A DNA stretch of 64,000 nt, taken from the NCBI GenBank assembly GCA_000091205.1, contig AP006500.2; one strand, written 5' to 3'. The notes below the pieces were generated by a model. The model had not been told where the DNA came from and did not search any database. It saw nothing but the letters and a program-made list of their open reading frames with translations. Positions 9,321 through 51,028 of the stretch are shown here, in pieces (the first letter of the stretch is position 1; the number at the start of each line of letters is the position of its first letter). Source of the DNA: Cyanidioschyzon merolae (taxonomy: Eukaryota). The position numbers were made by a program, and so were the translations under genes.

Positions 9321-9324
9321 AAAA

Positions 9325-19900: not shown

Positions 19901-21097
19901 ATGTGCTGAAATACTGGAACCACATCTTATTGGATATTGAGGATGCTAGGGCGCTCGGCTTCGACGTGCGCGTCTGCTTTGTTCTGAGCCGGCAGGCTCT
20001 GTTCTGAAAAACGTGTCGCAAATTGCGAACAAGTCAGCGATCACATTCCAGGCGTTTTTGCTAGACGAGCTTCACTGGCCGCAGACCGAAACCGCGGCTA
20101 TAAGCTTGGACGTTCCGGGGTGACACTCGTTCTCGTTGCGACTTCGCTTCGGAAGTCGCAGTCAACTCGAGCGCTTTGATCACCACGAGCTCGTCCCTGG
20201 CCTCCTTCGACACTGCGAAAGATCCAATTCACCAGTCGCAGCTTTTATTTGGTCTTGTGAGGTTATAACGGCCACAAATTGCGCGATGTGCGCCCCATGA
20301 AGCGCTCGACATTGACTCGCATCTGATTTCTGAGGTTCCTTTGATACGTTTTTGACAATCGTACAGCACAGCAGAGCTTTTCCGATCGCCGATATCGTGT
20401 GGCGCCCCCGGAAAGCATCCTGGGAATCGTGTATAGGAATTTGTGATGCAATGCTCAGAACTTGTTGCATCATGTCTCCGGAGCATCAGTTTTGTTGTTG
20501 CACGAATGTTGGATCACAATATTCTTGAGCAACTTGGACATCTGGTGGCCCTGCTCTCGGAACGCCAAAGAATAGCAGCATGACGATTGCGTCAAGCCGA
20601 GTGATGCTGGGCGAGAGACAATCGCGTAGGAGGCTTCGCGACACCACATGCCGTCCTGCATCTCACATTTCGGAAGATGCTCCCTACTGATATCTATTCG
20701 TTGAGAAGCAGTGATTATGGTTTCAGAATGATGTATCCTGGATGACACATTTCCATTCCAGACCCGTCTCATTCTCCTTTTGAGAGAATCTTTCTTCTTT
20801 TTGTCAAGTTTTATTTTCTCCGTCTTCACTTTCACCTTACCATGGTGTTCTGGTATGAAAGTAGTCACTATACTTTATATCCGTCTTGTGTCCTCGGGAC
20901 TCAGACGTACTGGGCGGACGTTGACACCGAAGCCTACCTTTTCTGTCCGTGTATAGATCTACTTTTGCTCAGGAAGTTTTACGTCACCTTTTGCGTCGCG
21001 AGCATGCCCAAAAACCGATGCACGGCTTGCCGGTCCGTCCTCCGTGCGACCAGAGGAGCTACACATCATTCCAGGGCTGATGAAGGTAGCGACCGAC

Positions 21098-21253
21098 TTG
21101 TCGAAGAACGGTGCCCCGGATGCGAACGACTCCACTACTGATCCGTCTATGGAAAAAACGCGTTTCCCGTGGAAAAGCGACCGACTTGTCGAAGAACGGT
21201 GCCCCGGATGCGAACGACTCCGCTGTTGATCCGTCTATGGAAAAAGGCGTTTC
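21098..21253. repeat. Tandem duplication of a ~78-bp unit ('gaccgacttgtcgaagaacggtgccccggatgcgaacgactcc...'). There are two copies.
   Basis: Read directly. The copies differ at a few positions. Confidence 0.85.
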
Positions 21254-27936: not shown

Positions 27937-29604
27937 ATGCCCCGTGGCGAGCGGTCAGTCCACCCGTCCTGCTGTCAACGGGGTCCATCACGGACACTGA
28001 CACAAAGTGGACGCGGAACTGCCAGCGGACACGTCATAGCTCGCCAGGGCTGCACCGTTCCTGCTGCCAGATGCGGACACGAGGTCTTCGTGTCCACACA
28101 CTGCACCAGGGTTGTTTCCAAGCGCTGGCTTGTTTACAACAAACGCGGAATGTGGGAGTGCATAGCACCAACAGCCTACGCGGTGGACTGGAACACCGCG
28201 CTTGGTGACGTTCTGCAGACTCCTGAAGAAGTAGAGTTTCTGAGCACACTGGCGTGCTCGCGGGAGCGCTTGCAAGTCGCGCTGCGGCACTGGAAACAGC
28301 TCTCTCTACGGGAGCGTAGTCTATGTGGAACCCGCCAGAAGCACGCGAATAGCGAGGCTCACTTGCCAGCCGCGGAAGAGAAACCTGTCGACGAATCTGC
28401 TAATAAAGCACTCCTTAAAAACTTGAAAGAGACCCTGTTTGCGACCGCTGGGCCGGTCGAGGTGCGGAGCGCCCTCTATCAACTTGAGGCCTATATTCCG
28501 TGCTTGCAGCGCCTGACGAGCTTGTTTCAAGAACAACGTACTGTGGAACATTTTGCGCATAATCGGCACGCGAGCGAAAGCTGCCGTTTCGCGTGGAAGT
28601 CGGGAATGGCGGAACGCCGCACCGTCCAACGGGAATCATTATTGCGTTTCGAGATCCTGTTCACCCTTTTTTATTGGAGCATGGCAAAGATCAGAACCGG
28701 GCATGAAATACTTGATGAGTTTTCATCGAATGCCGAAGGTCAAACTCGCGAGGCCGTCGAGAACGAGGCAGTCCGACTCTTCCGCGAGGCCAGCGGTGTT
28801 CTCAAGTATCTCTCGGAGAAGCTTTCTCCGGGATTGCTGGTGGACATGGATAGCTCCGAATTCGTTTGTGAAGTGCATCCATGTGTAGCATCCGCACTGT
28901 CAAGAATAGCCATGGGCGAAGCTTATTTGCTGGCACTAACGCGTGCCGAGTCCCGACAGCTATCACCGGAAACACTGCTGCGTCTCTCCGTGGGTGTTAC
29001 GGAGACTTTCGCGCTCGCACGCGCTCAACTCCAAGGGCTCTGTGATGGCACTAACAAGGCTGCCGCTGGTCACAAACGACTCGCGTACTCCCCAGAGCCT
29101 GGTTACCGCGCAGTTGCGGAGCTTGGCGAGGCACTCGGACGCACACGTTGCTTCTATTATCAAGCGCTCATCTTTGAAGCGGGTACGAGTCCGCGAGAAA
29201 TTTCAGGCAAGCGCGGGGCAGTTATACGCTTGCTCGAGCACGCATCGCTCGAAATTGAGAAGCGCCGTGTGGGGCGCCTCCTGCGAGACGGCGCGTTTCG
29301 CTTCCTCGTCCCGCCGATGCGTGCGCCCACCGTCCAGCATTGGCAGAACTTAATTAGCATCAAGCTAGAAAAGAGCCGCCGCGACAATGACCTGGTATAC
29401 ATGGAACCTGTTCCGGACTCGATACCAAACATCACAGCAACTGAGGCCCTGTATCCGTTCTATGCTGTTGAGTATTCCTTCACGGACTTGAACCAAACCC
29501 AGCTCGATGCCAGTTCATCTCTAGACGCGTCACTGAATGGTAGCCCCCGCGCCGGTGCCCAGCAGAACGGAACGAACGAGTCGATTGGAGGGACTTTCCG
29601 CTGA
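27937..29604 (+). CDS. BRO1-domain-like protein (BROX/ALIX N-terminal-like). Tentative.
   Basis: The ATG at 27937 was verified. '[16 protein letters not shown]' and '[12 protein letters not shown]' resemble the BRO1 consensus 'FEKACVLFNIGALHSQIA' and 'AAGVFQYLKE'. The protein is alpha-helical and about 550 aa. Confidence 0.4.
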
Positions 29605-31008
29605 AACCAAACGCCAAATAAACACTGTGTTCTGATTCACAACGACAAATGGACGACAAGAACCGCCTCAGCGAAATCCACGCAACCGAGTCAGCATTCA
29701 CGGCACGCTAGAAAAAGTTCGTATCCCGACCTGCATCCCTTGGGTCTGAACGACAACCAATAAAACACGCCATGTATCGCAAGCATGAAACTAGAGCAAT
29801 GCTCCAGCGGGCGCTGCGTATCGCCGCGCACAACGCCTGCGCGTATCCTCGAGCCGACGCACTTTGTGTGGTACGGCAACGCCGTTCTGTCTCCGTGCAG
29901 CGACCTCAGCGGCGCTATAGGCGCTATTGCTGTCGCTTTCGGCAGGCAGTAGGCACACACGATAGGACGTACGAAACCACCAGAATATCCGAGATGAAGT
30001 ATAGGTAATGTAACATGGAGGTAGGTGTAGATCGTTGGATCCTCCACCTCGCACTGGAAAAAACATAAACTAAGAAAAGCAAAATGCGCATAATCGGAGA
30101 ACGCTGGCCTAAGTGAACGTTCTGTCAATGGAAAAAAAGGGAAAAAATGCCTGCGCGTGTTAAACCCGCAGGCACGCATCGCTCACATGATTCATGTTTA
30201 GAATCGATGAGCAGAATGAGGGATTCCACACGCGTGCGATTCTTAGCAACAGGTAGAAAAGCGTCTACTTTCCCGTTTTAGACCGCCTCAAGTTCCACAA
30301 ATTCCAGACGAGACTTGATTACGGGAATTATGGTCCGTTCAAGCGTTCCTCCGGGCATCGAGCATATTGTTAGAAGCGGCTCCGGCGCGAAACGCCCTGA
30401 TGCAGTCGACATACAGAGAGAGACCGGCTCTGGGGTATCTTTGCCGGCGTCAGTGTCAGGCGTTATTCACTGGATTCGGAGCCGAAGACCATTGTTCTTC
30501 TGGGAACCAAAAGGCCGTGTAGACAGACCTGCTTCCAGCAGCGCAAAACGACACGCTATGACAACATAGCGACCAGAGCGACGCCTAGACACAGACCGTC
30601 CATCTCCATCCCGGAAAACCGCGTTGCAGAAGACCTGTCTGGGTCTCGTCACAGCATCCGCCACCGGGGGCACGCGGAGCCATAGCGCTGCAGGCTCGTC
30701 CGGTTCGCGAAACTTTCCATCTACAGGATGAACTTTCGAATATCTGGAAACCGTCCAACCGTACATCGTCTGCGACACGGATGGAAGATAGTATTCGTCA
30801 GTTGCTGGTTACTTCCTCGTTTTTGTTCTATGGGCGCCCGTGCCGCCCATGCAATCCGCGAAACCTATACCTGCGTCAGATTGTAATGGAGCGTTGCACT
30901 GCTCGCTCTGCACCTGGGTTTCGATTTTTTCGGAACTAGATTAGTTGCGTACCCTCGAAATTCGAAGTGCAGTCATGAGAGCATGTGGAGGCTTTTTGGT
31001 TCTTCAAG

Positions 31009-32248
31009 GATTTGCGGTTGTCCTTTCGGAATGAACACCACAACGCTTCCCAGACGGAAGCGGGTCCGTCACCGGAATCAACATGATTCGCGATGCTATC
31101 GAATAAGGCTTCGCAGAGTAGTACACTTCAATTTCCCTGTCATTCGGATGAGCATCCACGCTTCTCCCTTCCCAGCGTCTAGCGGATGCCTCAATCGCGC
31201 ATTCTTCGCGTTCTCGAGCACTCTGTTTCGTAGCAGAGTCGGCGCTCAGCAACGGGCAACATCGTCTACACAGACAAGGCTAACACGATGACGTCGCTTG
31301 ACGGCTTGCTCACGGGCTCGGGTCAGAAAATCACTGACCTCTGGTCATCATACAATCGATTCCGTTCGAAAGCCAAATCAGCCTCTATTTGGAACCGCCA
31401 AAGACATGGCATTCGACGCGAGCACGAGACCCTTCAGGGCATGTATTCCCGAAAGCTCCAGTCTTTTCCGGTTGCACGGAAAAATGTCCTGACCTCGGCC
31501 AGAGGTCATCGCAGCGACCGTCTCCGGTGGAGCGCGTACCAGCGCTTTACACGGCGTCAGCGTTCACCGATGGACATCGCTCAGCTCGCTCGGCGCCCTG
31601 GATGGAGCTCCCGGTGCTCTTCTCATCGTGGACAATATCGCGTTCCACAAATCCTCCATGGAGTGCGACACAGTGCGCCTGCGTGTGCAGCAGACAGCGC
31701 TCCCGCCTAGGGAGTCGCCCAGGCGAAGCAGGTGATCGCGAGGCATAGCGCCAGGTGCGGAAACGTACGAGAGCACCCACTGGCGCCTTCTGTACCCGTC
31801 AAGGCCAGGCACCGAGCGGTGAAGCAAGCGTCCACCCGCCACAGGTTAACGCTGCGAGGTGTAGTGGGTTTCTCGGAACACCTGACCACTGTCAAGGGTC
31901 AACGCGCGGAACGGCGTCCAGCGCCCGCGTCCAAACTAGACAGAGAGAACACCTGAAGCGTGGATCGCAACTTCTGCCCATGAACGAACAGCGTCTGCAA
32001 CGGCCAGACGTGTCGACATCGGGACGCTAACGCTGCCATCAACGTCCGTCGCCCGTTGACAACGGAACTGGGTAGGCAGGATTGACCGGCGTCATTTTAA
32101 AGCCTGAGATGAGAGAGCGGAAAAGGAAGCAGTCCCAGAAAAAGCGCACAGTGGCAGGCAGTTGCATCAGTTCAAAAAGAGGCTCAGACGTTAGTAGGCG
32201 CGCCCGAGTACGCAATGTGTACACGATGCACTCTTTTCTGACGTGGGT
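31009..32248 (+). repeat. Dispersed repeat copy A (about 1.24 kb). It is inverted relative to copies B and C, and truncated at the end that corresponds to B positions ~38560..38695.
   Basis: It is near-identical to 37321..38559 (reverse complement). The shared 140-aa and 119-aa ORF translations are identical or nearly so. Confidence 0.9.
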
Positions 32249-32526
32249 CTAACGCATAAGCAATGCCGGAAACCGTTGATGAAAAAATTGGTATGGGTCC
32301 GATTCTCTGGAACTCGATATGCTGTAAAGGCTTTGTCTCTTCAGGCGAAGGAAGTCAACGGAGGCCGCTTCTCGGCAAATAAGAAAGTACACGTCGTGCA
32401 ATAACGAACGCGCTCTACAATCGGACTAAGGGGCTTCCGTGCTGGCGTTGTCGCGCTTGGTGCTGGTCCGGAACGGTACTGATCGCGGTGGTTCTTCTTG
32501 CTGGACGGAACAGTGCAGGTTCCCGA

Positions 32527-33720
32527 ATGGCAAGTTATGACCCATTTGCTTTGAAAGCAAGCGGTTGTGAGCAGAAAAAACCACCCGCCTGGTTTGAACT
32601 AGGCAAAAGTCTGCTAACGCTCACGTTTGCCGCGGGCGCCGATCAAGAACCCTATAGCCCGGACTCATTTTGGATAAACGCCGGATCCGAAACCTCCAGC
32701 ACACGGGTCAAGCGAAGCAGGCCCGTTGAAGCCGTTTCCACGACTAGCGCTGGCACCTCTGATGACGTTCGGGCGGCTGGACGGAGCGAAACGGATAGGC
32801 AGGTCCCTGTTCAAGAGCCCCGAAACGAGCCGAAAGGTCCCGGCTGCTTCTTCCCGCCGCCAATAGACGACCGAGTTTTGTGTGTTTGCGCTTTTATTGC
32901 TCGGAACTTCACAGGTCCTGATATTGAAATCGAGGCCAAGCTGGGAACAGTTATTGATCTGTCCACCAGAGAACGGGCTGTCCTACCTGGCTGCGCCACT
33001 GCGGCCTGCCTCCAAGCCGAGGTGAACAACGTGCTGCGCTTTGAGTCGAAGGTTTCTTTCGATGCATTCAAGCGACTAAACGAAGTCTTAAACAGGACAG
33101 TGGCATCAGCAGTCCGCCATCGCGGACCATTGGTGCGACATTCGCGTTCACGTCAGACGGATCTGCGCTTCTCGTCAGGCTACAGGGAGACGCGTCCGTG
33201 GAGCCGCAGCGAAGGCGAAGCAGAATCCGGAACGAATGCGACCCAAGGCAACGATAAGACGCCTGCCTCGTTCATGTTCAAGACTCGGTTAGAAACGCTG
33301 CATATTCTCTTCCCAAGTCATCCATATGATGTACGCGTGAACGCTGCCCGCGAACAGCAACTGACTCCTGCCGAAGCGGTGCGACTCGGAGACGCTCGAG
33401 GTGTACTCGAAAGTGAACGACTCAAGGATCGTTTATCCTATCGCTGTGGTGAGCTTTCCATCGATATCACCGTGGTGCACCTTCCCAGAGAGTCGCTCAT
33501 GACGTACGAGGTTGAGGTCGAGCTCATCTTCGACAACCGAGCCGACCAGTGCGCAGAACTTGTACAAGTTTGCACGGACTACCGTCAGCGTCTTGAATCC
33601 GCAGCCCCATTGGCGCCCCCAATGGGTCCTTCACCGCCAGCGTTACTCGTCACCATTGCAGAGACTCTATTCAACACGCTAGTGGCTCTGAATAACGTGC
33701 TGGCAAGCATTACCAACTAG
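32527..33720 (+). CDS. mRNA capping enzyme RNA 5'-triphosphatase, Cet1/TTM (triphosphate tunnel metalloenzyme) type
   Basis: The first ATG is at 32527 (track start 32488 is GTG). The metal-binding glutamate motifs 'PDIEIEAKLG' (motif A, ExExK) and 'TYEVEVELI' (motif C, EVELE) are present at the spacing expected for fungal/protozoal/Chlorella-virus triphosphatases. Confidence 0.6.
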   Translation: MASYDPFALKASGCEQKKPPAWFELGKSLLTLTFAAGADQEPYSPDSFWINAGSETSSTRVKRSRPVEAVSTTSAGTSDDVRAAGRSETDRQVPVQEPRNEPKGPGCFFPPPIDDRVLCVCAFIARNFTGPDIEIEAKLGTVIDLSTRERAVLPGCATAACLQAEVNNVLRFESKVSFDAFKRLNEVLNRTVASAVRHRGPLVRHSRSRQTDLRFSSGYRETRPWSRSEGEAESGTNATQGNDKTPASFMFKTRLETLHILFPSHPYDVRVNAAREQQLTPAEAVRLGDARGVLESERLKDRLSYRCGELSIDITVVHLPRESLMTYEVEVELIFDNRADQCAELVQVCTDYRQRLESAAPLAPPMGPSPPALLVTIAETLFNTLVALNNVLASITN

Positions 33721-33795
33721 TCTCCGTGGACGCTCCTGTAACCAAACCCGAACCCTGTGTCAGACGCGTCGGCACAGCGTCCTCTGGGCCGTCGC

Positions 33796-34431
33796 TCAGA
33801 CGACAAGACGGTATGTAACGTAGCGCCCTGCAGTCTCAGAGTTGCGGGTAATCTTAAGCACTTGCCCTCGTGTCACACCAAAGTAACGCGCGACGGGATC
33901 GCTCTGTAGGATGCGCGGCAGCTGCGTGTCCTTGAGCTGGTACCGTTTAAGGAGGGTCTTCTTCTGCTCCGCCGTCAGAACTTCGTGCTTAGGAACCAGC
34001 TGGTGTCGAGTGATATTCACTAAAAGCTCAGCTTCTTGGAAAAGCTCCAGATGAAAGCGCGGTTGGAGCTCTGCCACCGCCTGTTTCGCAATAGGAGTCA
34101 AGCCCGTCTGCACGACGATGATCGCACGAAGTACGTTCTCTGTCTCCAAGCGAAGGCAGTACTCTCGGATGGGCTTCACACCCACCTTCTCCTCTTTGGG
34201 GAAAAAGACGTATATTTGGTTAGAGCGATCGTTGCGATGCTGCCGCAACATGGTAAGAGACTCTCGCGCACGCCCCGCTGCGTCGAACTTGTGTGCGAAC
34301 TCTTCCAACGGCAGTTCCAAGTCAGTTTTCGTCGGTAAAACGAGGTAACCACGGTCTCGTAGCATTTCTAGAATCGTCCGACGAATCCTATGTAAACGAC
34401 GCGTCTCGTCGGCCTGGATGTCGGTGGCCAT
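33796..34431 (-). CDS. RPB5: DNA-directed RNA polymerases I/II/III subunit RPABC1 (RPB5)
   Basis: The ATG at 34429-34431 was verified. '[23 protein letters not shown]' matches the RPB5 N-terminus. The C-terminal '[69 protein letters not shown]' is the conserved RPB5 assembly domain. Confidence 0.9.
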   Translation of the reverse strand: [211 protein letters not shown]

Positions 34432-35815
34432 TGCGACGAACGCACCGCTGCCAAAACAAGTGCAACGATTACGGCGACAACAGTGTTCACGGTGGTCTCG
34501 CGTAGGCCTTTGCGTCGGCTTTAGCTCGGAGCGATATGTTCGGCAGCGAAAACCACAACACCGTCAACGTTAGCGTCTGTGTAGCGAACGCTTCGCAGTA
34601 GCGCTCCCTCGGAACGCGAACACAGTACAATGCTCATCCAGGCTGATATGCGGTCGCGAACGCCCCCGCGATAGCGCTGCCCAGGAGCAAGGAGCCTTTG
34701 ACGGAACGCCTGCTTGACAAACTGCAGAGCTTCGACTGGTGTCACTTACTAAACGCAACCAGTACAAGCCTGATGAAGGTATGCACGCACCCTGCAGTGG
34801 CTGCAGCTTAAGAGAGTCTTGCTCGTGTTTGCGGACGCTCCGGGCAAAGTAGGCCAGGAAGCAGTGCAGCTATCTGGTGACTACGCTGCAGGCCGATGGA
34901 AACGACCTTTTGGAACACGTAGGTGTTGAAGTCCCTGTCTGGCGCTGTTTCATAACCTGAAAGAGGCAGCCAAGCAGCTCAGGGCCATGTTTGACGTTTT
35001 TCGTGGTTTGGACGCTATTTTGGACAAGTTCTTGAGGGCAGTGCGCGGAGCTGCGACACGCTGGTGTTTCCCAAAGTCGCTCGCATACGGGGACAGACAA
35101 TTTGATGCGTCGGTACACTCGTCATGAAGATGCTCGTCGCCTGGACGGGAGTATTTCGGGAAGGATGCGGATAAATCGAGGCCACGTGCCCCGTTTCGCT
35201 TCGGGAGTACCCGCGAGCCACTGGGCAGCAGCAAAGTACCCGACGCTTACGTAGCGTCGATCGCACGTCCCGCGAGTCGCACTGCTGCAGTAGTGCCGAT
35301 GCGGCAACCAGCAACCTGCAACACTGTGTACTACGGATAGCCGCTCGCTGACGGTGCCTCAGCGATGGACCTGGAAACAGCGGAACGCCGGTCGTGTGCT
35401 GTGGTCTGCCTACTTCACTCGAATGCATTGGGGAGCTGTCGGAGAGCAGGGAAATCGCGGTGTCCGCGAGCAGTGTGCCGCGTTCCATGTAACGATTTCA
35501 CTCGTATGTACACTCGTGAGCGCGTCGACGTTGGGCAATATGCTTCGAATCTGGGCCACGGAAAACAAGAAGCTGGAAAGGTTTCGAAGCAGATCACTTC
35601 GCAACCACGAACTGTCTCTTGTCTGAAACTTGGATGCTTTACGTATTTACGGATCCGCCGAAGCGTTTCCGCAGCTCTTCTGAGTTGCACAGATACGAAA
35701 ACCGTTCCATCAAATCCGCCTAGACAAAGCGCACACTATCTAGTCGCCATATAAAAGTGATACCGAATCCGAAGGATGCTTGTGCAATCACCGTCTCTCA
35801 TTCGTCCGGACCAGC

Positions 35816-37117
35816 TCAATGCCGAGATTTGTATTCCTGGTTGAGATCGTCGACTCCAAACTCAAAAGCAACCTCTGCCTCGGCTTCCGCCAAATCCGCT
35901 GGTGTCATCATCTCGTCTATCATGACGTCAGCCTTTTTCTCCCAACGCAGCGCCCAGCAACGTATTAGCTGCACAAGGAGCCAAGCCAGCAGAACAGATG
36001 CTGTCAACGTAGCGATCACAAACAGTACGATCCCGTAGAGAGGCCACCCGTTGGATTCTCCGAGATCGCATCCATCGTTCGTGCACAACAGCATCTGAAG
36101 CGTCCGGTTCCCGAGCGAATGTATCGCAATACCGGGAGCCAGTGTTGGATAAAGGAGCGCGTCCGCAGGATCCGCTGTTTCCACGAAGAATGCACTGTCG
36201 TTCGCCGCGCAAACAGGCGAACAGGTACGCTTCAGAGAGTAATGATCCGAAACGGATGGCCTCAGAAAATAAATAGACTGTTCCGGCGTGTATTTGCTGG
36301 GGGCATAGAGACTCGGTAACTCGCTCAAAACTGATGTCGATGCAAAGTATAGCTCATCGGAGGTGACGAAACGCGGGACCAAGTCCTGGTGGTGCACAAA
36401 CGCACCCAATGATACCAGCGGCAGGAAGCCGTCATGGCCACGCTCAGGAGATCCGTACAAGAAAATATCAAAGAAGGTCGATGCTTCGTCGTTATTGTCG
36501 TCGACGAGAAAAGCAGGCTGGTTGACGGCGTTCGCACGAATGAGACCTGTGAAGCCCAGCACTATCGCCGCCGCTCGTAGAACAACCGTCGGAAGATCGT
36601 ATTCATCTGGCGGTGGTTTGCCGTCTGTTCCCAGATAGAACCGATTCGCAGAGCGCAGGTACACCCAGCACTGAAGCGAGTCCGAGTTCACTGGCTTGAA
36701 CAGGTACTCCTGCACCGCTTGGGTTGAGGCAAGCTGGTAAGAGCCGCTCGCATAGAACGGTCGAACACCTGCTTGCGTCGATACGAACGACTGGGTCACA
36801 TAAAATAGCTCGGTCTCGCGCGTTGCTTGATCCTTCAGAAATTGAGTTGACTCGTTGATGAAGGAGAAGTTACATGTTACCGTCTGTGCTCGCAGACCTG
36901 GATATTGCTGTGGCCAAATTTGCAGCGAATAGTTTATCGCGTCGTACCGTTGCTTTAGCACCGTCTGATTGGTGACGCCATCTTCGGAGTACACTGAAAA
37001 CTCCCAGAAAGGTCGACTAAGTCCAAGTGCAGTCCACCGCTGGAAGACCAGCAGCGAAACGAGGCCGAGCCGCAGTAGCCAGCGCCAGGAAGCTGCTGAG
37101 CCTGTGGTTGCTGCCAT
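35816..37117 (-). CDS. Hypothetical type I membrane glycoprotein. It has a signal peptide, a large lumenal domain with many NxS/T sequons, a single C-terminal TM helix and an acidic cytosolic tail.
   Basis: The ATG at 37117 gives 'MAATTGSAASWRWLLRLGLVSLLVF' (signal-like). The upstream in-frame part of the track ORF crosses a (CA)n microsatellite ('VRVCVCRC') and the repeat-B boundary, so I excluded it. The C-terminal 'LYGIVLFVIATLTASVLLAWLLV' is a TM helix. Confidence 0.45.
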   Translation of the reverse strand: MAATTGSAASWRWLLRLGLVSLLVFQRWTALGLSRPFWEFSVYSEDGVTNQTVLKQRYDAINYSLQIWPQQYPGLRAQTVTCNFSFINESTQFLKDQATRETELFYVTQSFVSTQAGVRPFYASGSYQLASTQAVQEYLFKPVNSDSLQCWVYLRSANRFYLGTDGKPPPDEYDLPTVVLRAAAIVLGFTGLIRANAVNQPAFLVDDNNDEASTFFDIFLYGSPERGHDGFLPLVSLGAFVHHQDLVPRFVTSDELYFASTSVLSELPSLYAPSKYTPEQSIYFLRPSVSDHYSLKRTCSPVCAANDSAFFVETADPADALLYPTLAPGIAIHSLGNRTLQMLLCTNDGCDLGESNGWPLYGIVLFVIATLTASVLLAWLLVQLIRCWALRWEKKADVMIDEMMTPADLAEAEAEVAFEFGVDDLNQEYKSRH

Positions 37118-37320
37118 GATGGAGCCAGCAGACTGCGGCCTCGTACAAGCTTGTTCTGACGAGTGATCTTCGTCGACAGCGAGTGTGGGTTGTTCTTGTA
37201 CACGAGGACGTAGCAAAGGAGTGCCTGAAATAGCCGGCAAACACCTACACACACACACACGAACGCAGGTAGCACGGTCCAACACAACAGCTCGCCGACG
37301 AGATTTTCGCGATGCCAGTA

Positions 37321-38695
37321 CACCCACGTCAGAAAAGAGTGCATCGTGTACACATTGCGTACTCGGGCGCGCCTACTAACGTCTGAGCCTCTTTTTGAAC
37401 TGATGCAACTGCCTGCCACTGTGCGCTTTTTCTGGGACTGCTTCCTTTTCCGCTCTCTCATCTCAGGCTTTAAAATGACGCCGGTCAATCCTGCCTACCC
37501 AGTTCCGTTGTCAACGGGCGACGGACGTTGATGGCAGCGTTAGCGTCCCGATGTCGACACGTCTGGCCGTTGCAGACGCTGTTCGTTCATGGGCAGAAGT
37601 TGCGATCCACGCTTCAGGTGTTCTCTCTGTCTAGTTTGGACGCGGGCGCTGGACGCCGTTCCGCGCGTTGACCCTTGACAGTGGTCAGGTGTTCCGAGAC
37701 ACCCACTACACCTCGCAGCGTTAACCTGTGGCGGGTGGACGCTTGCTTCACCGCTCGGTGCCTGGCCTTGACGGGTACAGAAGGCGCCAGTGGGTGCTCT
37801 CGTACGTTTCCACACCTGGCGCTATGCCTCGCGATCACCTGCTTCGCCTGGGCGACTCCCTAGGCGGGAGCGCTGTCTGCTGCACACGCAGGCGCACTGT
37901 GTCGCACTCCATGGAGGATTTGTGGAACGCGATATTGTCCACGATGAGAAGAGCACCGGGAGCTCCATCCAGGGCGCCGAGCGAGCTGAGCGATGTCCAT
38001 CGGTGAACGCTGACGCCGTGTAAAGCGCTGGTACGCGCTCCACCGGAGACGGTCGCTGCGATGACCTCTGGCCGAGGTCAGGACATTTTTCCGTGCAACC
38101 GGAAAAGACTGGAGCTTTCGGGAATACATGCCCTGAAGGGTCTCGTGCTCGCGTCGAATGCCATGTCTTTGGCGGTTCCAAATAGAGGCTGATTTGGCTT
38201 TCGAACGGAATCGATTGTATGATGACCAGAGGTCAGTGATTTTCTGACCCGAGCCCGTGAGCGAGCCGTCAAGCGACGTCATCGTGTTAGCCTTGTCTGT
38301 GTAGACGATGTTGCCCGTTGCTGAGCGCCGACTCTGCTACGAAACAGAGTGCTCGAGAACGCGAAGAATGCGCGATTGAGGCATCCGCTAGACGCTGGGA
38401 AGGGAGAAGCGTGGATGCTCATCCGAATGACAGGGAAATTGAAGTGTAATACTCTGCGAAGCCTTATTCGATAGCAACGCGAATCATGTTGATTCCGGTG
38501 ACGGACCCGCTTCCGTCTGGGAAGCGTTGTGGTGTTCATTCCGAAAGGACAACCGCAAATCGTAAAACTGTTTACGAATCCATACATCCTTATTGCTGGA
38601 CTCTGATTATCCAGGCTGCACATCAGAAAAACAGCCTCGGAAGACCCCAATGGCAGAAACTGGGCGAGCAACTCCCTTTTCCTTTCTAGTCTGAC
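37321..38695 (-). repeat. Dispersed repeat copy B, the longest at about 1.38 kb. It is in the same orientation as copy C.
   Basis: Its termini are 'acccacgtcagaaaagagtg...' and '...cccttttcctttctagtctgac'. Compared with copies A and C, the internal ORF translations differ by 0-2 residues. Confidence 0.9.
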
Positions 38696-39931
38696 ACAGG
38701 TGTAGCAGCATGGACAAATTCTCCGATCCAGGAAAGCGCGTTTTCGCCAAGGCACAACCCGCTTTGACACGGCAGGTCTTTCAGGAGCGGGAACGTTCGA
38801 ATGGTAACCGTCTCTCCTCTCTCGCGCTCTGTGGAGAGTGGGGTCTGGATGTGTTCCGCTCAACCGAAAAGGCTCCACTACAATCTCTGTTCGCATTTGC
38901 GCCTCGACAGAATTTACCGGGATTTCATCTCCCAAATTCTTTATCATGGCTTAAGATCGATGTATCTGACATGTATCGCTTGGATGCGCGACTACCGCCA
39001 GTGCCCAATGGAAGAGAATTGCGTTGTTCCACACCAGCAGCGGTTCACGCGTCGCTCCCCGCGGGAAACGAGTGGCGAGCGCAATGACCAGAGCCTGAGG
39101 AGACAGGAGGCTGGAGCTCGCCGCACAGGCAGGTATCGGATATTTCGCTGCGTCGAACGATCCTCGATGAATCGTTTTCCGTGTGCAAAGCGCAAGGGTT
39201 TCTCGGGCGAGTCGGCGCACTGGTGCCGTCCTCAACTCGGCCAGAAAGCGCGCCACTGCCCTGGCATGCACAGCGGAACCAGCAAGCTCCACATTCGACA
39301 AGGTCCATTCGGCAAGTCCCTGCAGATTATTTCAGATGGACCAATACAGTCCGTAACCAGGAAGTTAACCATCATTCCATTACATATTCTTCGACGTTAT
39401 ATCAGATCACGACTTGTCTTTCCCTCCATCATAGATACTTCATGAATCTATCGCCCGTTCGGGTGCCCAGCCTGTGCCAGTCACTTGCTGTGTCGCTGGA
39501 TGCGCCGTCGCCGGGTGCGACGCATGCAGACAGGACACCAACGCGACGCTTTCCTAGCAGTTGGTTCGGAGAGGTCCGACTCTGTGCCGCCGTGCGAAGC
39601 ATTCGCTTCGGGTCTGCAACCCCAAACTTGAACACGACTCTGGGTCCAGCGGGTGTTTCAGAGGACGCTGTCGGTTTATGCCTCGCGCTTCCCTGGTTGC
39701 CGATGGGCATCGCGCAGCCGGGCGAATGCCGCTTCGATGCACTTCCGGGTACACCGCCCCGTACATGCAGTAATCGAAATCGCGCGCGCACAGATGCATG
39801 CGTTTCCCGCCAGAAAGACGCTGCCGTAGGCGGCAATCGCACGGCAGCACGCGCGATCCCCATCCGCTTGTATCCCGAGCGCTTTGAGCGTTCTCTTGGA
39901 CTGTGTTCCTCACTGCGAACGTGTCTCCGGA

Positions 39932-42424
39932 ATGGCCACTGAACTAGCATACCGACTGCCATTTGATAGTCTGAACTTGGGTAGTAACCCTCAGCAAAGC
40001 TTGCGGGCGCTCGGTGGCTCACAACCTTCAGACTCTCGCGGTGGGGCGGGCCGGAGTCGTAGCAGTCCTGCGAACACGTACTCGACGGACGTGGAAGTCC
40101 TCGTCCACTTCTTTCAGACTTTTGTGGATGATCGTGAGGCAAACCCGAGCTTGGGCAGCGACAGTCTGGACAGGGATGCCGACGGGACTCGCCACACGGC
40201 CGCTGGCTCCGAAGCGGCTGAGGAGCCCGCTGCGCTAGGCGAGCGGCAGAACTTGCGAGGCGTCGCGCCAAAGTACCTGCGCCATCTGCAAAAAATTGTC
40301 GACCGCGACTCCAAAATACTTGCTGTTGAGCTGGATGACTTGTTCACGGCTCATGAGGAAACGCTCGCTATGCGCATCCAGCTGAACACCAAGCGGTACA
40401 TTGAAATCTTGTCTCAGGCTGCGGACGCCATTATCGCCACGTTGCGACCGAGTAGGCTGCTGGCTTTGGACACTCTAGACCTATTGATGCAGCAGCGGGA
40501 GCAAAACGAACAGGAGAACCGTCTCGAAGACCAGGAGCTTTTCGGTAATGCCGGTGCTGGTGCTGGTGCAGCAGACGAAGATCCCTACAAGCGCATTCCC
40601 CCGCTTTTGGCGCGGCGCTATCAGGTGCAGCTGGTCCCTGCATCAGAGGACAAACCGTTCCGGATCCGTGATGTGCGAGCTGAGCATGTTGGCCGGCTTG
40701 TGCAAGTCAGTGGCATCGTAACGCGCGTGCTCGATGTGCGCCCACTCGTTCAGGTTGCCATTTATGTCTGCGATGCCTGCGGTACGGAGTATTACCAACC
40801 GATACCGGGACGACAATATATGCCCCTTTTCTTTTGCTCAAAGCAAGAATGCATGCGTTCCGCCACCGGAGGCGGGCGTCTCATTCCCCAGTATCGTGCT
40901 TTCAAATATAGCAAGTTCCAAGAGATTCGCATTCAAGAGCCCGCGCACGATGTTCCCGTTGGTAGCATTCCACGAACGTTAACTGTTCTGTTGCAAGGCG
41001 AACTCTCGAATGCTTGCGCAGCTGGCGACCACATTACGGTGGCCGGTATTTTTTTGCCAACGCTCGTGTCTGGCTTTCGCGCGTTCAAGCAGGGACTCCT
41101 GTCGGACACCTACCTCGAAGCCACTTTCATTCGGCAACAAAAACGGGACTACAAGGATTATCAGCGGGAAATAGCCCGCAATCAGCTCATTCAGGCTCGG
41201 ATTGCTGAACTCGCCAGTACCGCTGGAGTTTATGATCGGCTCGCGCGCTCCATTGCTCCAGAAATCTACGGGCACGAGGATGTCAAAAAAGCGCTCCTTC
41301 TGCAACTGGTAGGCGCACCGACCCGTGAACTTGCTGATGGGATGCGCCTGCGCGGTGATATACACGTATGCCTCATGGGCGATCCCGGTGTCGCCAAGTC
41401 GCAGCTGCTTCGCTACATCTGCAATGTAGCACCGCGAGGCGTCTACACTACGGGCAAGGGCTCGAGTGGTGTGGGCCTCACCGCAGCCGTTCTCCGTGAC
41501 TCCAATACCGGTGATGTGACGTTAGAAGGCGGCGCCCTCGTCATGGCTGACTGCGGCATCGCATGCATCGATGAATTCGACAAAATGGATGAGATTGATC
41601 GCACCTATATCCATGAGGTCATGGAGCAACAGACAGTCTCGATCGCCAAAGCTGGTATTACGACTTCGCTGAATGCACGGGCGGCCGTTCTCGCAGCAGC
41701 GAATCCAGTTCAGGGCCGTTATAATCGACGACGCTCAGCCGCCGAAAATATCAACATGCCAGCAGCACTGCTGTCGCGCTTTGATCTGTTGTTCCTCATG
41801 CTCGATGCACCCGATCAGGACAAGGACCTGGCTCTTGCCCGACATGTGACGTACGTGCACCGGACGGGCGAGGCCCCAGAACTCGGATTCGAACCAGCGT
41901 CACCCGACTTGCTGCGAGCCTACGTTGCGCAGGCTCGACAGTGTGTGCCCGTAGTACCGTCCGAGTTGACGGCCTATGTCGTAGAACACTACGTAGCGCT
42001 ACGCGCTGATGATAAGCAGCGCCGCTGGTTGCCTCGCGGCCACACGACTGCTCGCACGTTGCTGAGCATCCTACGACTTGCACAGGCACTCGCTCGGCTG
42101 CGCTTTTCCAACCTTGTTTCGCGCGAAGATATTGATGAAGCTGTGCGACTGCTCAACTGCTCCAAGGCCTCTCTGGACGATCCGAGCGAGGCAGGTGGCC
42201 ATCGGAACTTGCACGAGCTGGACGCGACAACGCGGATCTATCTACTCATCCGCGACCATGCTGCTGACCGGGGCGAGCGCTCGGTGCCCATTGCGGACAT
42301 CCTCGAGCAGGCCCTGCAGCAAGGTTTCACTAGCCAACAGTTCTACACCGCGCTGAGTGAATACGAAGACATCAATATCTGGTCGGTGGACTCGAACCGT
42401 ACCCGCATTACATTCACGGTGTGA
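39932..42424 (+). CDS. MCM7: DNA replication licensing factor MCM7 (AAA+ MCM helicase subunit)
   Basis: The ATG at 39932 gives 'MATELAYR'; the track start at 39884 is TTG. 'IHVCLMGDPGVAKSQLLRYICNVAPRGVYTTGKGSSGVGLTAAVLRDSNTGDVTLEGGALVMADCGIACIDEFDKMDEIDRTYIHEVMEQQTVSIAKAGITTSLNARAAVLAAANPVQGRYN' is nearly collinear with human MCM7 Walker A, Walker B and arginine-finger regions. 'LPAALLSRFDLLFLMLD' is also present. Confidence 0.92.
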   Translation: MATELAYRLPFDSLNLGSNPQQSLRALGGSQPSDSRGGAGRSRSSPANTYSTDVEVLVHFFQTFVDDREANPSLGSDSLDRDADGTRHTAAGSEAAEEPAALGERQNLRGVAPKYLRHLQKIVDRDSKILAVELDDLFTAHEETLAMRIQLNTKRYIEILSQAADAIIATLRPSRLLALDTLDLLMQQREQNEQENRLEDQELFGNAGAGAGAADEDPYKRIPPLLARRYQVQLVPASEDKPFRIRDVRAEHVGRLVQVSGIVTRVLDVRPLVQVAIYVCDACGTEYYQPIPGRQYMPLFFCSKQECMRSATGGGRLIPQYRAFKYSKFQEIRIQEPAHDVPVGSIPRTLTVLLQGELSNACAAGDHITVAGIFLPTLVSGFRAFKQGLLSDTYLEATFIRQQKRDYKDYQREIARNQLIQARIAELASTAGVYDRLARSIAPEIYGHEDVKKALLLQLVGAPTRELADGMRLRGDIHVCLMGDPGVAKSQLLRYICNVAPRGVYTTGKGSSGVGLTAAVLRDSNTGDVTLEGGALVMADCGIACIDEFDKMDEIDRTYIHEVMEQQTVSIAKAGITTSLNARAAVLAAANPVQGRYNRRRSAAENINMPAALLSRFDLLFLMLDAPDQDKDLALARHVTYVHRTGEAPELGFEPASPDLLRAYVAQARQCVPVVPSELTAYVVEHYVALRADDKQRRWLPRGHTTARTLLSILRLAQALARLRFSNLVSREDIDEAVRLLNCSKASLDDPSEAGGHRNLHELDATTRIYLLIRDHAADRGERSVPIADILEQALQQGFTSQQFYTALSEYEDINIWSVDSNRTRITFTV

Positions 42425-42544
42425 ACGTTCGCCTGCCTAGTCAAGACCAATGCCAGAATAATATGGAACGCGTCCCCCATCTCGGGCGTTCACATGAACG
42501 ACTGGATCTGTTTCTAATGTCGTCAGCACCAGGCTTTGCGGCCA

Positions 42545-43793
42545 TTTCCGCTCTCTCATCTCAGGCTTTAAAATGACGCCGGTCAATCCTGCCTACCCAG
42601 TTCCGTTGTCAACGGGCGACGGACGTTGATGGCAGCGTTAGCGTCCCGATGTCGACACGTCTGGCCGTTGCAGACGCTGTTCGTTCATGGGCAGAAGTTG
42701 CGATCCACGCTTCAGGTGTTCTCTCTGTCTAGTTTGGACGCGGGCGCTGGACGCCGTTCCGCGCGTTGACCCTTGACAGTGGTCAGGTGTTCCGAGACAC
42801 CCACTACACCTCGCAGCGTTAACCTGTGGCGGGTGGACGCTTGCTTCACCGCTCGGTGCCTGGCCTTGACGGGTACAGAAGGCGCCAGTGGGTGCTCTCG
42901 TACGTTTCCGCACCTGGCGCTATGCCTCGCGATCACCTGCTTCGCCTGGGCGACTCCCTAGGCGGGAGCGCTGTCTGCTGCACACGCAGGCGCACTGTGG
43001 CGCACTCCATGGAGGATTTGTGGAACGCGATATTGTCCACGATGAGAAGAGCACCGGGAGCTCCATCCAGGGCGCCGAGCGAGCTGAGCGATGTCCATCG
43101 GTGAACGCTGACGCCGTGTAAAGCGCTGGTACGCGCTCCACCGGAGACGGTCGCTGCGATGACCTCTGGCCGAGGTCAGGACATTTTTCCGTGCAACCGG
43201 AAAAGACTGGAGCTTTCGGGAATACATGCCCTGAAGGGTCTCGTGCTCGCGTCGAATGCCATGTCTTTGGCGGTTCCAAATAGAGGCTGATTTGGCTTTC
43301 GAACGGAATCGATTGTATGATGACCAGAGGTCAGTGATTTTCTGACCCGAGCCCGTGAGCGAGCCGTCAAGCGACGTCATCGTGTTAGCCTTGTCTGTGT
43401 AGACGATGTTGCCCGTTGCTGAGCGCCGACTCTGCTACGAAACAGAGTGCTCGAGAACGCGAAGAATGCGCGATTGAGGCATCCGCTAGACGCTGGGAAG
43501 GGAGAAGCGTGGATGCTCATCCGAATGACAGGGAAATTGAAGTGTAATACTCTGCGAAGCCTTATTCGATAGCAACGCGAATCATGTTGATTCCGGTGAC
43601 GGACCCGCTTCCGTCTGGGAAGCGTTGTGGTGTTCATTCCGTAAGGACAACCGCAAATCGTAAAACTGTTTACGAATCCATACATCCTTATTGCTGGACT
43701 CTGATTATCCAGGCTGCACATCAGAAAAACAGCCTCGGAAGACCCCAATGGCAGAAACTGGGCGAGCAACTCCCTTTTCCTTTCTAGTCTGAC
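42545..43793 (-). repeat. Dispersed repeat copy C (about 1.25 kb). It lacks the first ~125 bp present in B.
   Basis: It is near-identical to 37447..38695. A single coding-frame difference was seen (SATQCAC in A and B versus SAPQCAC here). Confidence 0.9.
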
Positions 43794-43886
43794 GTAGCTT
43801 TCACAAAATCGCATCTCGTTTGACTTTGACGATCCGGATCCGGCTTGGGGCTCCTCGCAGCACCCGTCTGTTCTCCGCTCGAGCGT

Positions 43887-44750
43887 ATGAAAGCACCACA
43901 GTACACCTTATGCGCATGTGTCGATCAAGAGGAGCTCCAGAAGCGCATGAGTCTCGAACCGGAGCGACACGTCGAAGTGTGGGTGATCCAGGCGATCCCG
44001 CGTCACGCGGAACAACTGCTGCGGTACCTGTCGAGTTCGGTGCCGCTTGGTCGAGAGCTCGCCCATTTGAAGCGTGGACACCGGGATAGCACCGGTGCCG
44101 TCAACGTACTGCTTGCACTCGTCTCCGCGGACGATCCGGAAGTTCCCAACCGAAACGCGCACGCCGTACTAGAGCGACTCGGTGTGGCACGCGAGTGGGT
44201 ACATACCGCCACGCTTCGCCGGTGTGTTGTGCCCGCAGTGGCGCCTCGAACTGGACTACAGAGTCAGCACTGGTCGCGAACGCTCTGGCCTGTTATATAC
44301 AGGCCAGAGGCTCCGGAACCACCGATACTCGCTGAGACCGAGGTCGGCACGGCGCTGGAGCTCCTCGAACGTCTCGAGCACGAGACGCAGGGCACCGACG
44401 TTAACGCCGCTCTTGTTGTGCGTTGGCCGCTACCCAGCGCACCTGCACAGGTGATCTGCAGTGTCCAGGGTCCGCATGCGCCACTCAGGTGCATCGACGA
44501 AGCGTCCCGCATTTTCCGCGACCGAGACAACGGCGAGGAGCATCCGCATTATATGCTCACTGGTTTGGACCTCTTCACAGTTCGGGAGCCGTGTGTTTGC
44601 TGTGCAATGGCGGCGACGCATTCTCGCATTCGTCGCCTGTTCTTTATTCACCCGGACGCGAGCTTCGGTGGGATCCTTCGGGTCGGCGTGCATCGACTCA
44701 AGGCCCTTAATCATCGGTACGAGGCGTATCAGCGCCAGCTCGCCTCTTAG
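43887..44750 (+). CDS. ADAT3: tRNA-specific adenosine-34 deaminase subunit ADAT3/Tad3-like (catalytically inactive deaminase partner)
   Basis: The first ATG is at 43887 (track start is TTG). The C-terminus 'HYMLTGLDLFTVREPCVCCAMAATHSRIRRLFFIHPDASFGGILRVGVHRLKALNHRY' aligns with human ADAT3 '[57 protein letters not shown]', the PCxxC zinc motif. Confidence 0.75.
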   Translation: MKAPQYTLCACVDQEELQKRMSLEPERHVEVWVIQAIPRHAEQLLRYLSSSVPLGRELAHLKRGHRDSTGAVNVLLALVSADDPEVPNRNAHAVLERLGVAREWVHTATLRRCVVPAVAPRTGLQSQHWSRTLWPVIYRPEAPEPPILAETEVGTALELLERLEHETQGTDVNAALVVRWPLPSAPAQVICSVQGPHAPLRCIDEASRIFRDRDNGEEHPHYMLTGLDLFTVREPCVCCAMAATHSRIRRLFFIHPDASFGGILRVGVHRLKALNHRYEAYQRQLAS

Positions 44751-46068: not shown

Positions 46069-47184
46069 CTACTTCTCCCACTCGAGGACGACCTTGCCGG
46101 CAGTTCCGCTGCCTGCGACTTTGAACGCTTCCTCGTACTCGTGCGCCGGAAAGCGATGCGTCAGCACCGGTTGGATGCGTTCCATGAGGCCGCCCACCAG
46201 CATGTTGATCATCCGGTACCAGGTCTCAAACATCTCGCGCCCGTAAATTCCCTTAATGGAGAGCCCCTTGAAAACAACGTCATCCCAATTAATGGGAAAA
46301 GACTCACTCGGTATCCCGAGGAGTGCAATACGACCTCCGTGATTCATCGTCGCCAGCATGCTCCGGAAAGCAGACGGCACCCCGCTCATCTCGAGACCTA
46401 CATCGAAACCTTCGGTCATACCTAGCTGTTTCATCGCATCGCGAAGCAGATGCTCCGTATGCTTGGAGTCATCTTCCATGCCTAGACCAGTAGCCGGCTT
46501 GCCCTGGCTCGTATTGATCGCCAGCGTCGCACCGCATTTTTGCGCTAGTGAGAGGCGCTCATCACGTACGTCTGTTACGACGATGTGCCGTGCCCCGACG
46601 TGGCGGCAGATTCCGGCTGCCATCATCCCTATGGGTCCAGCGCCCGTAATCAAAACATCCTCTCCAACCAGGTCATTCGCCAGTGCCGTATGTACAGCGT
46701 TTCCCAACGGGTCCATGACAGCACCCCAGATATCCGGGATACGGTCAGGTAGTCGGACAACATTCCGCGCTGGCACTGCAACATAATCTGCAAATGCGCC
46801 GTCACGATTCACGCCTACGCCGAGCGTATTTCGGCAGAGGTGTTGGCGACCCGCTCGGCAGTTTCGGCAGAAGCCACAGGTCACGTGACCTTCTCCAGTG
46901 ACCCGGTCGCCAACGCGCAGCGGTACTTTTTGTGCCACTTGATCACCGAGCGCAGCGACACGCCCGACGTACTCGTGACCCACAACGAGAGGAATTGGAA
47001 TCGTTCGCTGTGCCCAAGCGTCATACTTGTAGATGTGAAGGTCCGTCCCGCAGATTGAGGCGTGCGTCACGCGAATGAGCACGTCATTGGGACCAACAGG
47101 CGGGACTGGTTGATTCTCAACCCACTCAAGACCGGCCTTTGGAGCCTTTTTCACCAGCGCTCGCATAAACCTTCCGACAGACAT
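46069..47184 (-). CDS. TDH: L-threonine 3-dehydrogenase (zinc-dependent MDR family)
   Basis: The ATG at 47182-47184 was verified. It is collinear with E. coli Tdh over almost the full length, for example '[31 protein letters not shown]', '[41 protein letters not shown]', '[17 protein letters not shown]', '[14 protein letters not shown]' and '[10 protein letters not shown]'. Confidence 0.92.
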
Positions 47185-48380: not shown

Positions 48381-49490
48381 ATGTTTGTGCACGGGAAAGC
48401 ACTGAATGCAGTGAGTGTGCGACAAAACGGGCGAGTTGTATGTCTAGCTGAGCGGCCGCGAGGTTCCGGCGGAACGGCTCGCATCAAGCCCGCTTGGGCT
48501 GGCACCGACGAGTTGCTGTCGAAGCTCACGAACTTGCTCATTCAGACACCGTGGGTGTATCGCATTCTGAAGAAGCAAGCAAAAGCGGTTATGGTACGGA
48601 CAGCAGCGTCGCGTGGCATTGACTGGAGCGGTTGTGCTGCTGCTTTAGAAGAAGCGGGTGTTTCAAAGTACTTTGCACCGCGCACAGACCTGGTGTACCC
48701 CGCATACTACACCAAGCCGTTTCATGCGTACGATGAGGGAAACTTGTGCTGGCTGGCCGCGTATGAGGTAGAGCCGGCAACCTACGCCATGGCGCTTCGC
48801 GTATGGCCCCAGGAGCGGGAGCTTTCCTGGCGAGACGCCCAGCGACGTCTGCGTCACTGCTTTCTTGACCAGGTCACGCGCTTCATGGCGGACCCCGGAG
48901 ACTTGCGAATCGACCGTGTGCGTTTCACGCTGGATGTTGGCTGTGGCGCTGGAATCAGCACACGCTTCCTCGCAGAGTACCTGGCGCGCAACATACCCCG
49001 AGACGACGCTTTGCGCGTGCTCGGTATCGACCCGTCACCGTATTTCCTGGCCGTGGCCAACTTGCGGAACGAAAAGGCGAACGCGCTAGATGTGCAGAGA
49101 CTTCCGCCAAACGTTCGCATTGAATACCAGCAAGCATTGGGCGAATCGCTGCCGCTTGCTGACAGTGTCGTGGACCTGGTTACACTACAGTTCGTCCTGC
49201 ACGAGTTGCCGCGAGATGCAGCCGAGTCTGTCTTTCGTGAGCTTGTGCGAGTCACTCGAGACCGTGGCTGCATCGCAATGGTGGACAACAACCCGCGCTC
49301 GCCCGTCATCCAAAACTTGCCGCCGGCGCTCTTCACGCTTATGAAATCAACGGAGCCGCATTCCGACGATTACTACACTTTTGACGTGGAAGCATGTTTG
49401 CGCCAGATTCCCGGGATCGAACGGGTTCAGGTGACGGCATGCGATCCTCGCCATCGTGCCATCCTTTGCCGTGTTCGTAAATCTACGTAG
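48381..49490 (+). CDS. Class I SAM-dependent methyltransferase (Methyltransf_11/25-like)
   Basis: Motif I 'LDVGCGAGISTRFLAE', the post-I acidic 'VLGIDPSPYFL' and motif II/III-like 'VDLVTLQFVLHELP' are present. The N-terminal region 'YYTKPFHAYDEGNLCWLAAYEVEPAT' is conserved. My own indexing of this start was inconsistent by about 1 nt, so I kept the track coordinates. Confidence 0.6.
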   Translation: MFVHGKALNAVSVRQNGRVVCLAERPRGSGGTARIKPAWAGTDELLSKLTNLLIQTPWVYRILKKQAKAVMVRTAASRGIDWSGCAAALEEAGVSKYFAPRTDLVYPAYYTKPFHAYDEGNLCWLAAYEVEPATYAMALRVWPQERELSWRDAQRRLRHCFLDQVTRFMADPGDLRIDRVRFTLDVGCGAGISTRFLAEYLARNIPRDDALRVLGIDPSPYFLAVANLRNEKANALDVQRLPPNVRIEYQQALGESLPLADSVVDLVTLQFVLHELPRDAAESVFRELVRVTRDRGCIAMVDNNPRSPVIQNLPPALFTLMKSTEPHSDDYYTFDVEACLRQIPGIERVQVTACDPRHRAILCRVRKST

Positions 49491-50890: not shown

Positions 50891-51028
50891 GCTCAGGTAC
50901 CGCCGCGCCGCCGCCGCCGCTTCCACAGAACCTGACAAGCGCTGCTTCTAAACTGGAGCCGTTCTCTGCGCTCTGGGGCGGTACACGCCCGCGCCAGCGC
51001 TCTTCTATCTTCTGTACAGCACCAGATC

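Follow-up and report, generated by a model that had tools for sequence, protein, structure and literature searches.

A probable Cet1/Pct1-type capping RNA 5'-triphosphatase of the red alga Cyanidioschyzon merolae, its conserved gene neighbourhood and its flanking repeats

Introduction

Two kinds of RNA 5'-triphosphatase serve mRNA capping. In metazoans and plants, the enzyme is a cysteine phosphatase fused to the guanylyltransferase. Fungi use a triphosphate-tunnel metalloenzyme (TTM), exemplified by Schizosaccharomyces pombe Pct1 (PDB 4pn0/4pn1) and Saccharomyces cerevisiae Cet1 (PDB 1d8h, 3kyh). The two kinds catalyze the same reaction of the capping pathway, but they are unrelated in fold and mechanism. 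Here we describe a gene of the fungal kind at positions 32527-33720 of a 64,000-nucleotide (nt) stretch of Cyanidioschyzon merolae DNA (GenBank assembly GCA_000091205.1, contig AP006500.2), referred to below as the window. Tunnel chemistry and both of its Glu motifs are shared with the protozoan and viral TTM RNA triphosphatases (Trypanosoma cruzi Cet1, PDB 6l7v-6l7x; the mimivirus enzyme, 2qy2/3bgy; the N-terminal domain of vaccinia D1). The generic CYTH/TTM enzymes (YgiF, AtTTM3, thiamine triphosphatase, class IV adenylate cyclase) have the superfamily fold in common with it.

C. merolae has already been counted among the organisms with a metal-dependent RNA triphosphatase of the TTM type, an assignment credited to Hausmann et al. 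2005 (PMC11157219). The supplement of PMC2904801 lists CMA035C as the C. merolae guanylyltransferase, with the entry 'GTase (functional with TPaseMDP)', and a passage of that paper takes up the guanylyltransferase of red algae under the split-type group. The family and this member of it are thus both known, the gene being already annotated and of a type already cited; reading it in this way is correct, and it is not new.

Results

Gene model and identity

The gene is an open reading frame (ORF) of 397 residues on the + strand, with its ATG at 32527 and its stop codon ending at 33720. Mechanically, the ORF can be extended in the 5' direction to a GTG at 32488. Since the homologues open with the same M-x-x-Y-D-P-F and exactly the same 397 residues make up the deposited C. 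merolae protein, ATG 32527 was taken as the true start. The features of the gene are as follows (all on the + strand; the Cet1 equivalents are discussed below).

32527..33720, complete, intron-less coding sequence of 397 residues plus stop for the predicted Cet1/Pct1-type RNA 5'-triphosphatase (ORF, Pfam, identity to BAM82462.1)
32527..32847, N-terminal region, residues 1-107, predicted to be disordered (pLDDT below 50) and rich in Ser, Ala, Pro, Gly and Thr (AlphaFold2 model, sequence)
32536..32547, Y-D-P-F peptide, residues 4-7, conserved at the extreme N terminus of red-algal-type homologues
32923..32940, motif A, IEIEAK, residues 133-138, on the first tunnel strand (133-144); E134/E136/K138 correspond to Cet1 E305/E307/K309
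33418..33432, basic motif B, R298-L-K300-D-R302, on strand 294-307; aligned with the triphosphate-binding Cet1 R454/K456/R458
33508..33525, motif C, EVEVEL, residues 328-333, on the last tunnel strand (324-333); E328/E330/E332 correspond to Cet1 E492/E494/E496
D212, corresponding to Cet1 D377 (HMMER alignment)
K252, corresponding to Cet1 K409 (HMMER alignment)
E276, corresponding to Cet1 E433 (HMMER alignment)
D313 and T315, corresponding to Cet1 D471 and T473 (HMMER alignment)

The protein was identical at all of its 397 positions (100%) to C. merolae 10D BAM82462.1/XP_005538498.1 (UniRef100_M1VGW6), which appears in the sources as 'hypothetical protein, conserved', as 'polynucleotide 5'-triphosphatase' and, in UniRef, as 'mRNA 5'-phosphatase'. 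The next-nearest protein, from Cyanidiococcus yangmingshanensis, was 56% identical, and another cyanidialean genome gave a homologue at 54% identity. A metagenome homologue was found at 39% identity; the 90%-identity cluster of that protein contains a Cyanidium caldarium protein. Because of the identity to the C. merolae protein, the window is assigned to the nuclear genome of a cyanidiophycean red alga, and its guanine-plus-cytosine content (50-60%) and intron-less genes fit this assignment. A trypanosomatid source, suggested at first by the GC-rich sequence without introns, was rejected, since T. cruzi Cet1 matched the protein weakly and the C. merolae protein is identical to it.

Family membership, fold and active site

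The only Pfam domain of the protein was PF02940, mRNA_triPase, at residues 132-333. Its score of 88 bits (E = 9.7e-25) exceeds the gathering cutoff of 24 and puts the match far above chance. The CYTH profile (PF01928) gave no match in the protein, even at E <= 1. A single-sequence search against the PDB sequences retrieved Pct1 of S. pombe at E 3e-12 and Cet1 of T. cruzi at E 1e-3. With a profile of the protein and eight homologues the E values were 3.8e-54 for Pct1, 1.7e-26 for yeast Cet1 and 9.6e-12 for T. cruzi Cet1. Searched with a profile, 1.84 billion representative proteins gave 2255 matches at E <= 1e-3, 353 of them at E <= 1e-30.

An AlphaFold2 model of the monomer was built from an alignment of nine sequences. 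From about residue 110 to residue 397 the protein formed a confident block, with a predicted local distance difference test (pLDDT) score mostly of 88-97 (about 90 overall). Besides the N-terminal 107 residues, the loop of residues 229-243 fell below 50. The model contains eight long strands (133-144, 204-215, 219-224, 248-261, 268-279, 294-307, 310-319 and 324-333) and flanking helices, and shows the eight-stranded antiparallel beta-barrel tunnel in predicted form. When the model was compared with the PDB by Foldseek, all the Pct1 chains ranked first (best E 4.8e-18; template modelling score 0.81, target-normalised). Cet1 followed (E 1.6e-14), with T. cruzi Cet1 and the mimivirus triphosphatase next. 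Sulfolobus TTM, AtTTM3, E. coli YgiF and thiamine triphosphatase were weaker structural matches, such generic TTM/CYTH proteins standing far lower. Membership in the CYTH branch was rejected, as Pfam reported mRNA_triPase alone at E <= 1 and CYTH-type structures were only distant Foldseek matches.

A sequence-only reading of the window had identified a metal-dependent triphosphate-tunnel RNA triphosphatase from two glutamate-rich motifs, IEIEAK and EVEVEL, and had proposed profile searches and structure prediction as checks. Both motifs are present, at residues 133-138 and 328-333, and in the model they lie on the first and last strands of a tunnel fold whose best matches are Pct1 and Cet1. 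Of the two profiles proposed, mRNA_triPase matched strongly and CYTH did not. The identification was therefore borne out. The alternating spacing of the Glu residues would place them on one face of each beta-strand.

Cet1 numbering was obtained from a HMMER alignment to chain 1d8h_A with an offset of +238. This offset agrees at every position checked with what we take to be the Cet1 mutagenesis sites (E305/E307, D377, R393, K409, E433, R454/K456/R458, D471 and E492/E494/E496); the list of tunnel residues reportedly comes from mutagenesis in the Shuman laboratory. Eleven of the 12 tunnel residues that we take to be essential in Cet1 align with invariant residues, and R393 was placed tentatively. 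Among nine aligned homologues, down to 25% identity, the counterparts of Cet1 E305, E307, K309, D377, K409, E433, R454, K456, R458, D471, T473, E492, E494 and E496 were all invariant. R220, on strand 219-224, was also invariant and is probably the counterpart of R393, judging from its position on the strand. That the gene encodes an inactive pseudo-enzyme, or is decaying, is hardly conceivable. The reading frame is intact, every catalytic residue is invariant, the predicted fold is of high confidence, and the protein is conserved across Rhodophyta.

Identity to Pct1 is only about 21-25%. Compared with Pct1, the red-algal protein has a longer, unrelated and disordered N terminus, with the Y-D-P-F peptide, and the low-confidence loop of residues 229-243 is additional.

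Role in mRNA capping

We consider it very probable that the gene encodes the cellular mRNA-capping RNA 5'-triphosphatase of C. merolae, a TTM enzyme of the fungal Cet1/Pct1 type. By homology, the eight-stranded antiparallel barrel would enclose a tunnel, in which E134 and E136 of the first strand and E328, E330 and E332 of the last would bind a divalent metal. K138, K252, R298, K300, R302 and probably R220 would hold the 5'-triphosphate of the nascent transcripts made by RNA polymerase II (Pol II). Hydrolysis of the gamma-phosphate would leave the diphosphate RNA end that the guanylyltransferase needs. The separately encoded guanylyltransferase, CMA035C, would then cap this end, and a separate methyltransferase would methylate the cap.

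Some points weigh against this assignment. The mechanism rests on homology and a predicted structure, and the structural model comes from only nine aligned sequences. The equivalence of R220 and R393 is drawn from strand position only, HMMER having aligned that loop loosely. Moreover, it is established that in vitro Cet1-family enzymes also hydrolyse nucleoside triphosphates and tripolyphosphate, and from the sequence alone one therefore cannot prove RNA ends to be the physiological substrate. The same activity would suit a TTM-fold phosphohydrolase working outside capping, be it an inorganic tri- or polyphosphatase, a nucleoside triphosphatase or a non-essential paralogue like yeast Cth1, with capping left to another enzyme; the generic TTM/CYTH enzymes among the weaker structural matches point the same way. 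Those enzymes stand far below Pct1 and Cet1, and we regard such a role as very unlikely. The capping triphosphatase is the reading that we retain.

The sequence-only reading had also implied that triphosphatase and guanylyltransferase are split. A motif scan of the protein found neither the P-loop of cysteine phosphatases (HCx5R) nor the KxDG motif of guanylyltransferases. The pattern (V/I/L)HCx5R(S/T) did not occur in any frame of the window, so that the metazoan and plant arrangement, an HCx5R(S/T) loop fused N-terminally to a KxDG guanylyltransferase, was not found. With no cysteine-phosphatase loop, no KxDG and no second Pfam domain, the protein is a stand-alone subunit. Among the Pfam-scanned ORFs of the window, none encoded a guanylyltransferase or a cap methyltransferase; the methyltransferase at 48381-49490 was rejected as a cap methyltransferase, being of the UbiE/Methyltransf_11 type. 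A single-domain triphosphatase, together with the stand-alone guanylyltransferase CMA035C, which the supplementary list of PMC2904801 places among the enzymes acting alongside metal-dependent triphosphatases, upholds a split capping apparatus. According to the literature, CMA035C is unlinked to the triphosphatase gene.

The N-terminal region

The WAQKW peptide, by which yeast Cet1 docks the guanylyltransferase, was not recognisable in the window protein, whose N-terminal region cannot be aligned with that of Cet1. The red-algal proteins have a conserved start of their own. The pattern M-x(0-2)-Y-[DN]-P-[FL] was found in the cyanidialean proteins, and nine homologues at a greater distance have it too, the rest of the N terminus being unalignable. 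One of the nine belongs to a Pyropia cluster, and the motif hence appears to be red-alga-wide. A basic K/R-R-x-R patch follows the Y-[DN]-P-F motif by approximately 20-60 residues. In the window protein KRSR occurs at residues 62-65, within the disordered region, and is a possible nuclear localisation signal. That Y-[DN]-P-F docks the guanylyltransferase or the C-terminal domain (CTD) of Pol II is speculation on our part. We infer that the disordered N-terminal 107 residues probably carry a nuclear import signal and partner-docking motifs.

Gene neighbourhood and synteny

The neighbours of the triphosphatase gene (Cet1 below) were identified by Pfam, unless stated otherwise.

267-2138, - strand, protein O-mannosyltransferase (PMT)
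3234-4043, + strand, RWD-domain protein
9481-14979, + strand, RPB1; 17.5 kb upstream of Cet1
15623-16987, - strand, BCKDK/PDK-type kinase
27937-29604, + strand, BRO1-domain protein
33796-34431, - strand, RPB5, 211 residues; convergent with Cet1, 75-nt gap from the Cet1 stop
35816-37327, - strand, conserved gene of 503 residues; 37-61% identity by tblastn to syntenic cyanidialean loci, no Pfam match above threshold
39884-42424, + strand, MCM7
43845-44750, + strand, conserved gene of 301 residues; 42-73% identity by tblastn to syntenic loci, no Pfam match above threshold
46069-47184, - strand, zinc alcohol dehydrogenase (ADH)
48381-49490, + strand, UbiE/Methyltransf_11-type methyltransferase
51029-52702, + strand, amidophosphoribosyltransferase (PurF)
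53907-53977, - strand, tRNA-Gly (GCC), the sole tRNA gene in the window
54897-56087, - strand, GFO/IDH/MocA oxidoreductase
57522-59969, + strand, protein kinase
60944-62737, - strand, LrgA/LrgB fusion protein, 597 residues, with both domains

The sequence-only reading had placed the gene in a block with RPB5 and within 20 kb of RPB1 and POP7, and had seen in this a locally high density of nuclear RNA-metabolism genes. RPB5 is indeed adjacent, and RPB1 lies 17.5 kb away. For POP7, no Rpp20/Alba-type Pfam match was found in the 33 ORFs within 20 kb of the gene or in the ORFs scanned elsewhere in the window (E up to 0.001-1). As a functional cluster the proposed density did not hold up, since the other neighbours (PMT, RWD, BCKDK/PDK kinase, BRO1, MCM7, ADH, methyltransferase, PurF, GFO) are unrelated.

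The tail-to-tail Cet1/RPB5 pair was kept in Cyanidiococcus, in Cyanidium and in a fourth cyanidialean genome, and the order of the unrelated flanking genes was kept too. It might be argued that Cet1, RPB5 and RPB1 form a functional, co-regulated cluster of Pol II transcription genes. The convergent pair persists in four cyanidialean genomes, with Cet1 identity falling as low as 39%, and stayed together through an inversion (see below), and RPB1 is only 17.5 kb distant. Against this, Cet1 and RPB5 are convergent and cannot share a promoter, POP7 was not among the scanned ORFs, and the genes between and around them are functionally unrelated. The whole neighbourhood of approximately 40 kb, including the BCKDK kinase, BRO1, MCM7, ADH, the methyltransferase, PurF and GFO, is equally conserved in order. 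Co-regulation is hence improbable. As the order of unrelated flanking genes is just as well conserved, we take the Cet1/RPB5 adjacency for general synteny in compact genomes and not for a transcription-gene cluster.

The 3' end of RPB1 (14410-14979) encodes a CTD in which about 8 heptads (YSPTSPA) precede about 12 nonamers (YSPSSPNVA; DNA period of 27 nt). Recruitment of capping enzymes in C. merolae has to read this unusual heptad-plus-nonamer CTD. Directly upstream of the RPB1 start lies a tandem array (8358-9436) of about 17 units with a 65-nt period, which overlaps an ORF of 227 residues (8213-8896, - strand) without a Pfam match. A second array (50565-50940), of about 8 units with a 47-nt period, lies just upstream of the PurF gene. 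Two-copy direct repeats were seen at 21088-21245 (70 nt, 96% identity, 88-nt spacing) and at 63615-63797 (87 nt, 94% identity, 96-nt spacing). The 301-residue protein gave a weak cytidine-deaminase-like hint (E 0.0076).

A repeat-flanked cassette

Three copies of a repeat of approximately 1.1-1.4 kb lie around Cet1 and MCM7.

31009..32251, copy A, an inverted-repeat arm, ending 276 nt upstream of the Cet1 ATG
37319..38695, copy B, the most complete (1377 nt), of which 37319-38561 is the inverted partner of A; immediately upstream of the 503-residue gene
42537..43793, copy C, direct with B and inverted with respect to A; just 3' of MCM7

Copy A is the reverse complement of 37319-38561 in copy B, from which it differs at 6 of 1243 nt (99.5% identity). 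B and C, which bracket MCM7, are direct copies with 99.7% identity over 1252 nt. The 5067 nt between A and B contain Cet1, RPB5, an ORF of 157 residues and the conserved 503-residue gene. As A lies upstream of Cet1 and B upstream of the 503-residue gene, the two inward-reading end genes have the same upstream sequence.

Relative to three other cyanidialean genomes, the window has the block of Cet1, RPB5 and the 503-residue gene in inverted orientation, exactly between A and B. Metagenome contigs that are approximately 99% identical to the window showed more than one arrangement. Contigs L006 and L012 have junctions of the window type. In contig L007 the ADH-side flank of C is joined via a repeat to Cet1, and in contig L008, from a different sample, the 3' side of MCM7 leads via a repeat into the BRO1 flank. 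An inversion between A and C would be expected to yield two reciprocal junctions, and these are the ones seen in L007 and L008. A flank other than that of the window was found upstream of Cet1 in contig L011. Four strain-specific variants of L006 are common to both repeat arms, which suggests concerted evolution. It should be noted that assemblers can mis-join or collapse repeats of 1.2 kb, and contig L001 breaks approximately 141 nt into each arm.

The nature of the repeat was examined as well. No Rfam family was found in 29500-44500 and no tRNA in the repeat; its ORF of 140 residues had no Pfam match. In three related species the syntenic loci showed no homology to the repeat or its ORFs, and no copies outside this locus were present among the metagenome matches. 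Its boundaries gave nothing identifying either, and the readings of the repeat as a gene, as a known RNA and as a transposon were rejected. On inverted repeats and inversions of the C. merolae nuclear genome, a literature search yielded nothing pertinent.

Discussion

Two broader proposals may be considered jointly. In the first, Cet1, RPB5 and the 503-residue gene would form a cassette in a recombination-active, invertible segment, bounded by near-identical inverted repeats of 1.24 kb with a third copy beyond MCM7; Cet1 and the 503-residue gene would have the same upstream sequence, and the repeats would give rise to different inversion states in natural C. merolae populations. In the second, the rhodophyte-wide Y-[DN]-P-F would be a lineage-specific docking site for the guanylyltransferase or for the heptad-plus-nonamer CTD, taking the place of yeast WAQKW. 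That both are correct together is doubtful, and we offer the combination tentatively. The red-algal N-terminal motif and the repeat-bounded invertible cassette are the only points that we have not seen described before, and both are modest.

The presence of a tunnel-type triphosphatase had been taken to constrain the lineage of the source organism to one outside animals and plants. This stands in a narrow sense, as animals, land plants and green algae are excluded, but the source is a red alga and thus lies within Archaeplastida. The suggestion that the gene marks a class of drug targets fits pathogens and loses its force for a free-living hot-spring alga.

Taken alone, the finding adds little, as it re-identifies an annotated gene of an already noted type. 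To those who work on C. merolae, a genetic model in which homologous recombination is efficient, the invertible repeat-flanked cassette, the red-algal N-terminal motif and the nearby heptad-plus-nonamer CTD may be useful. The C. merolae type has been used in the capping-enzyme literature to argue that red algae keep the split apparatus of fungi and protozoa, unlike green algae and land plants. This division within Archaeplastida is relevant to the distribution of the two kinds of capping triphosphatase in early eukaryotes.

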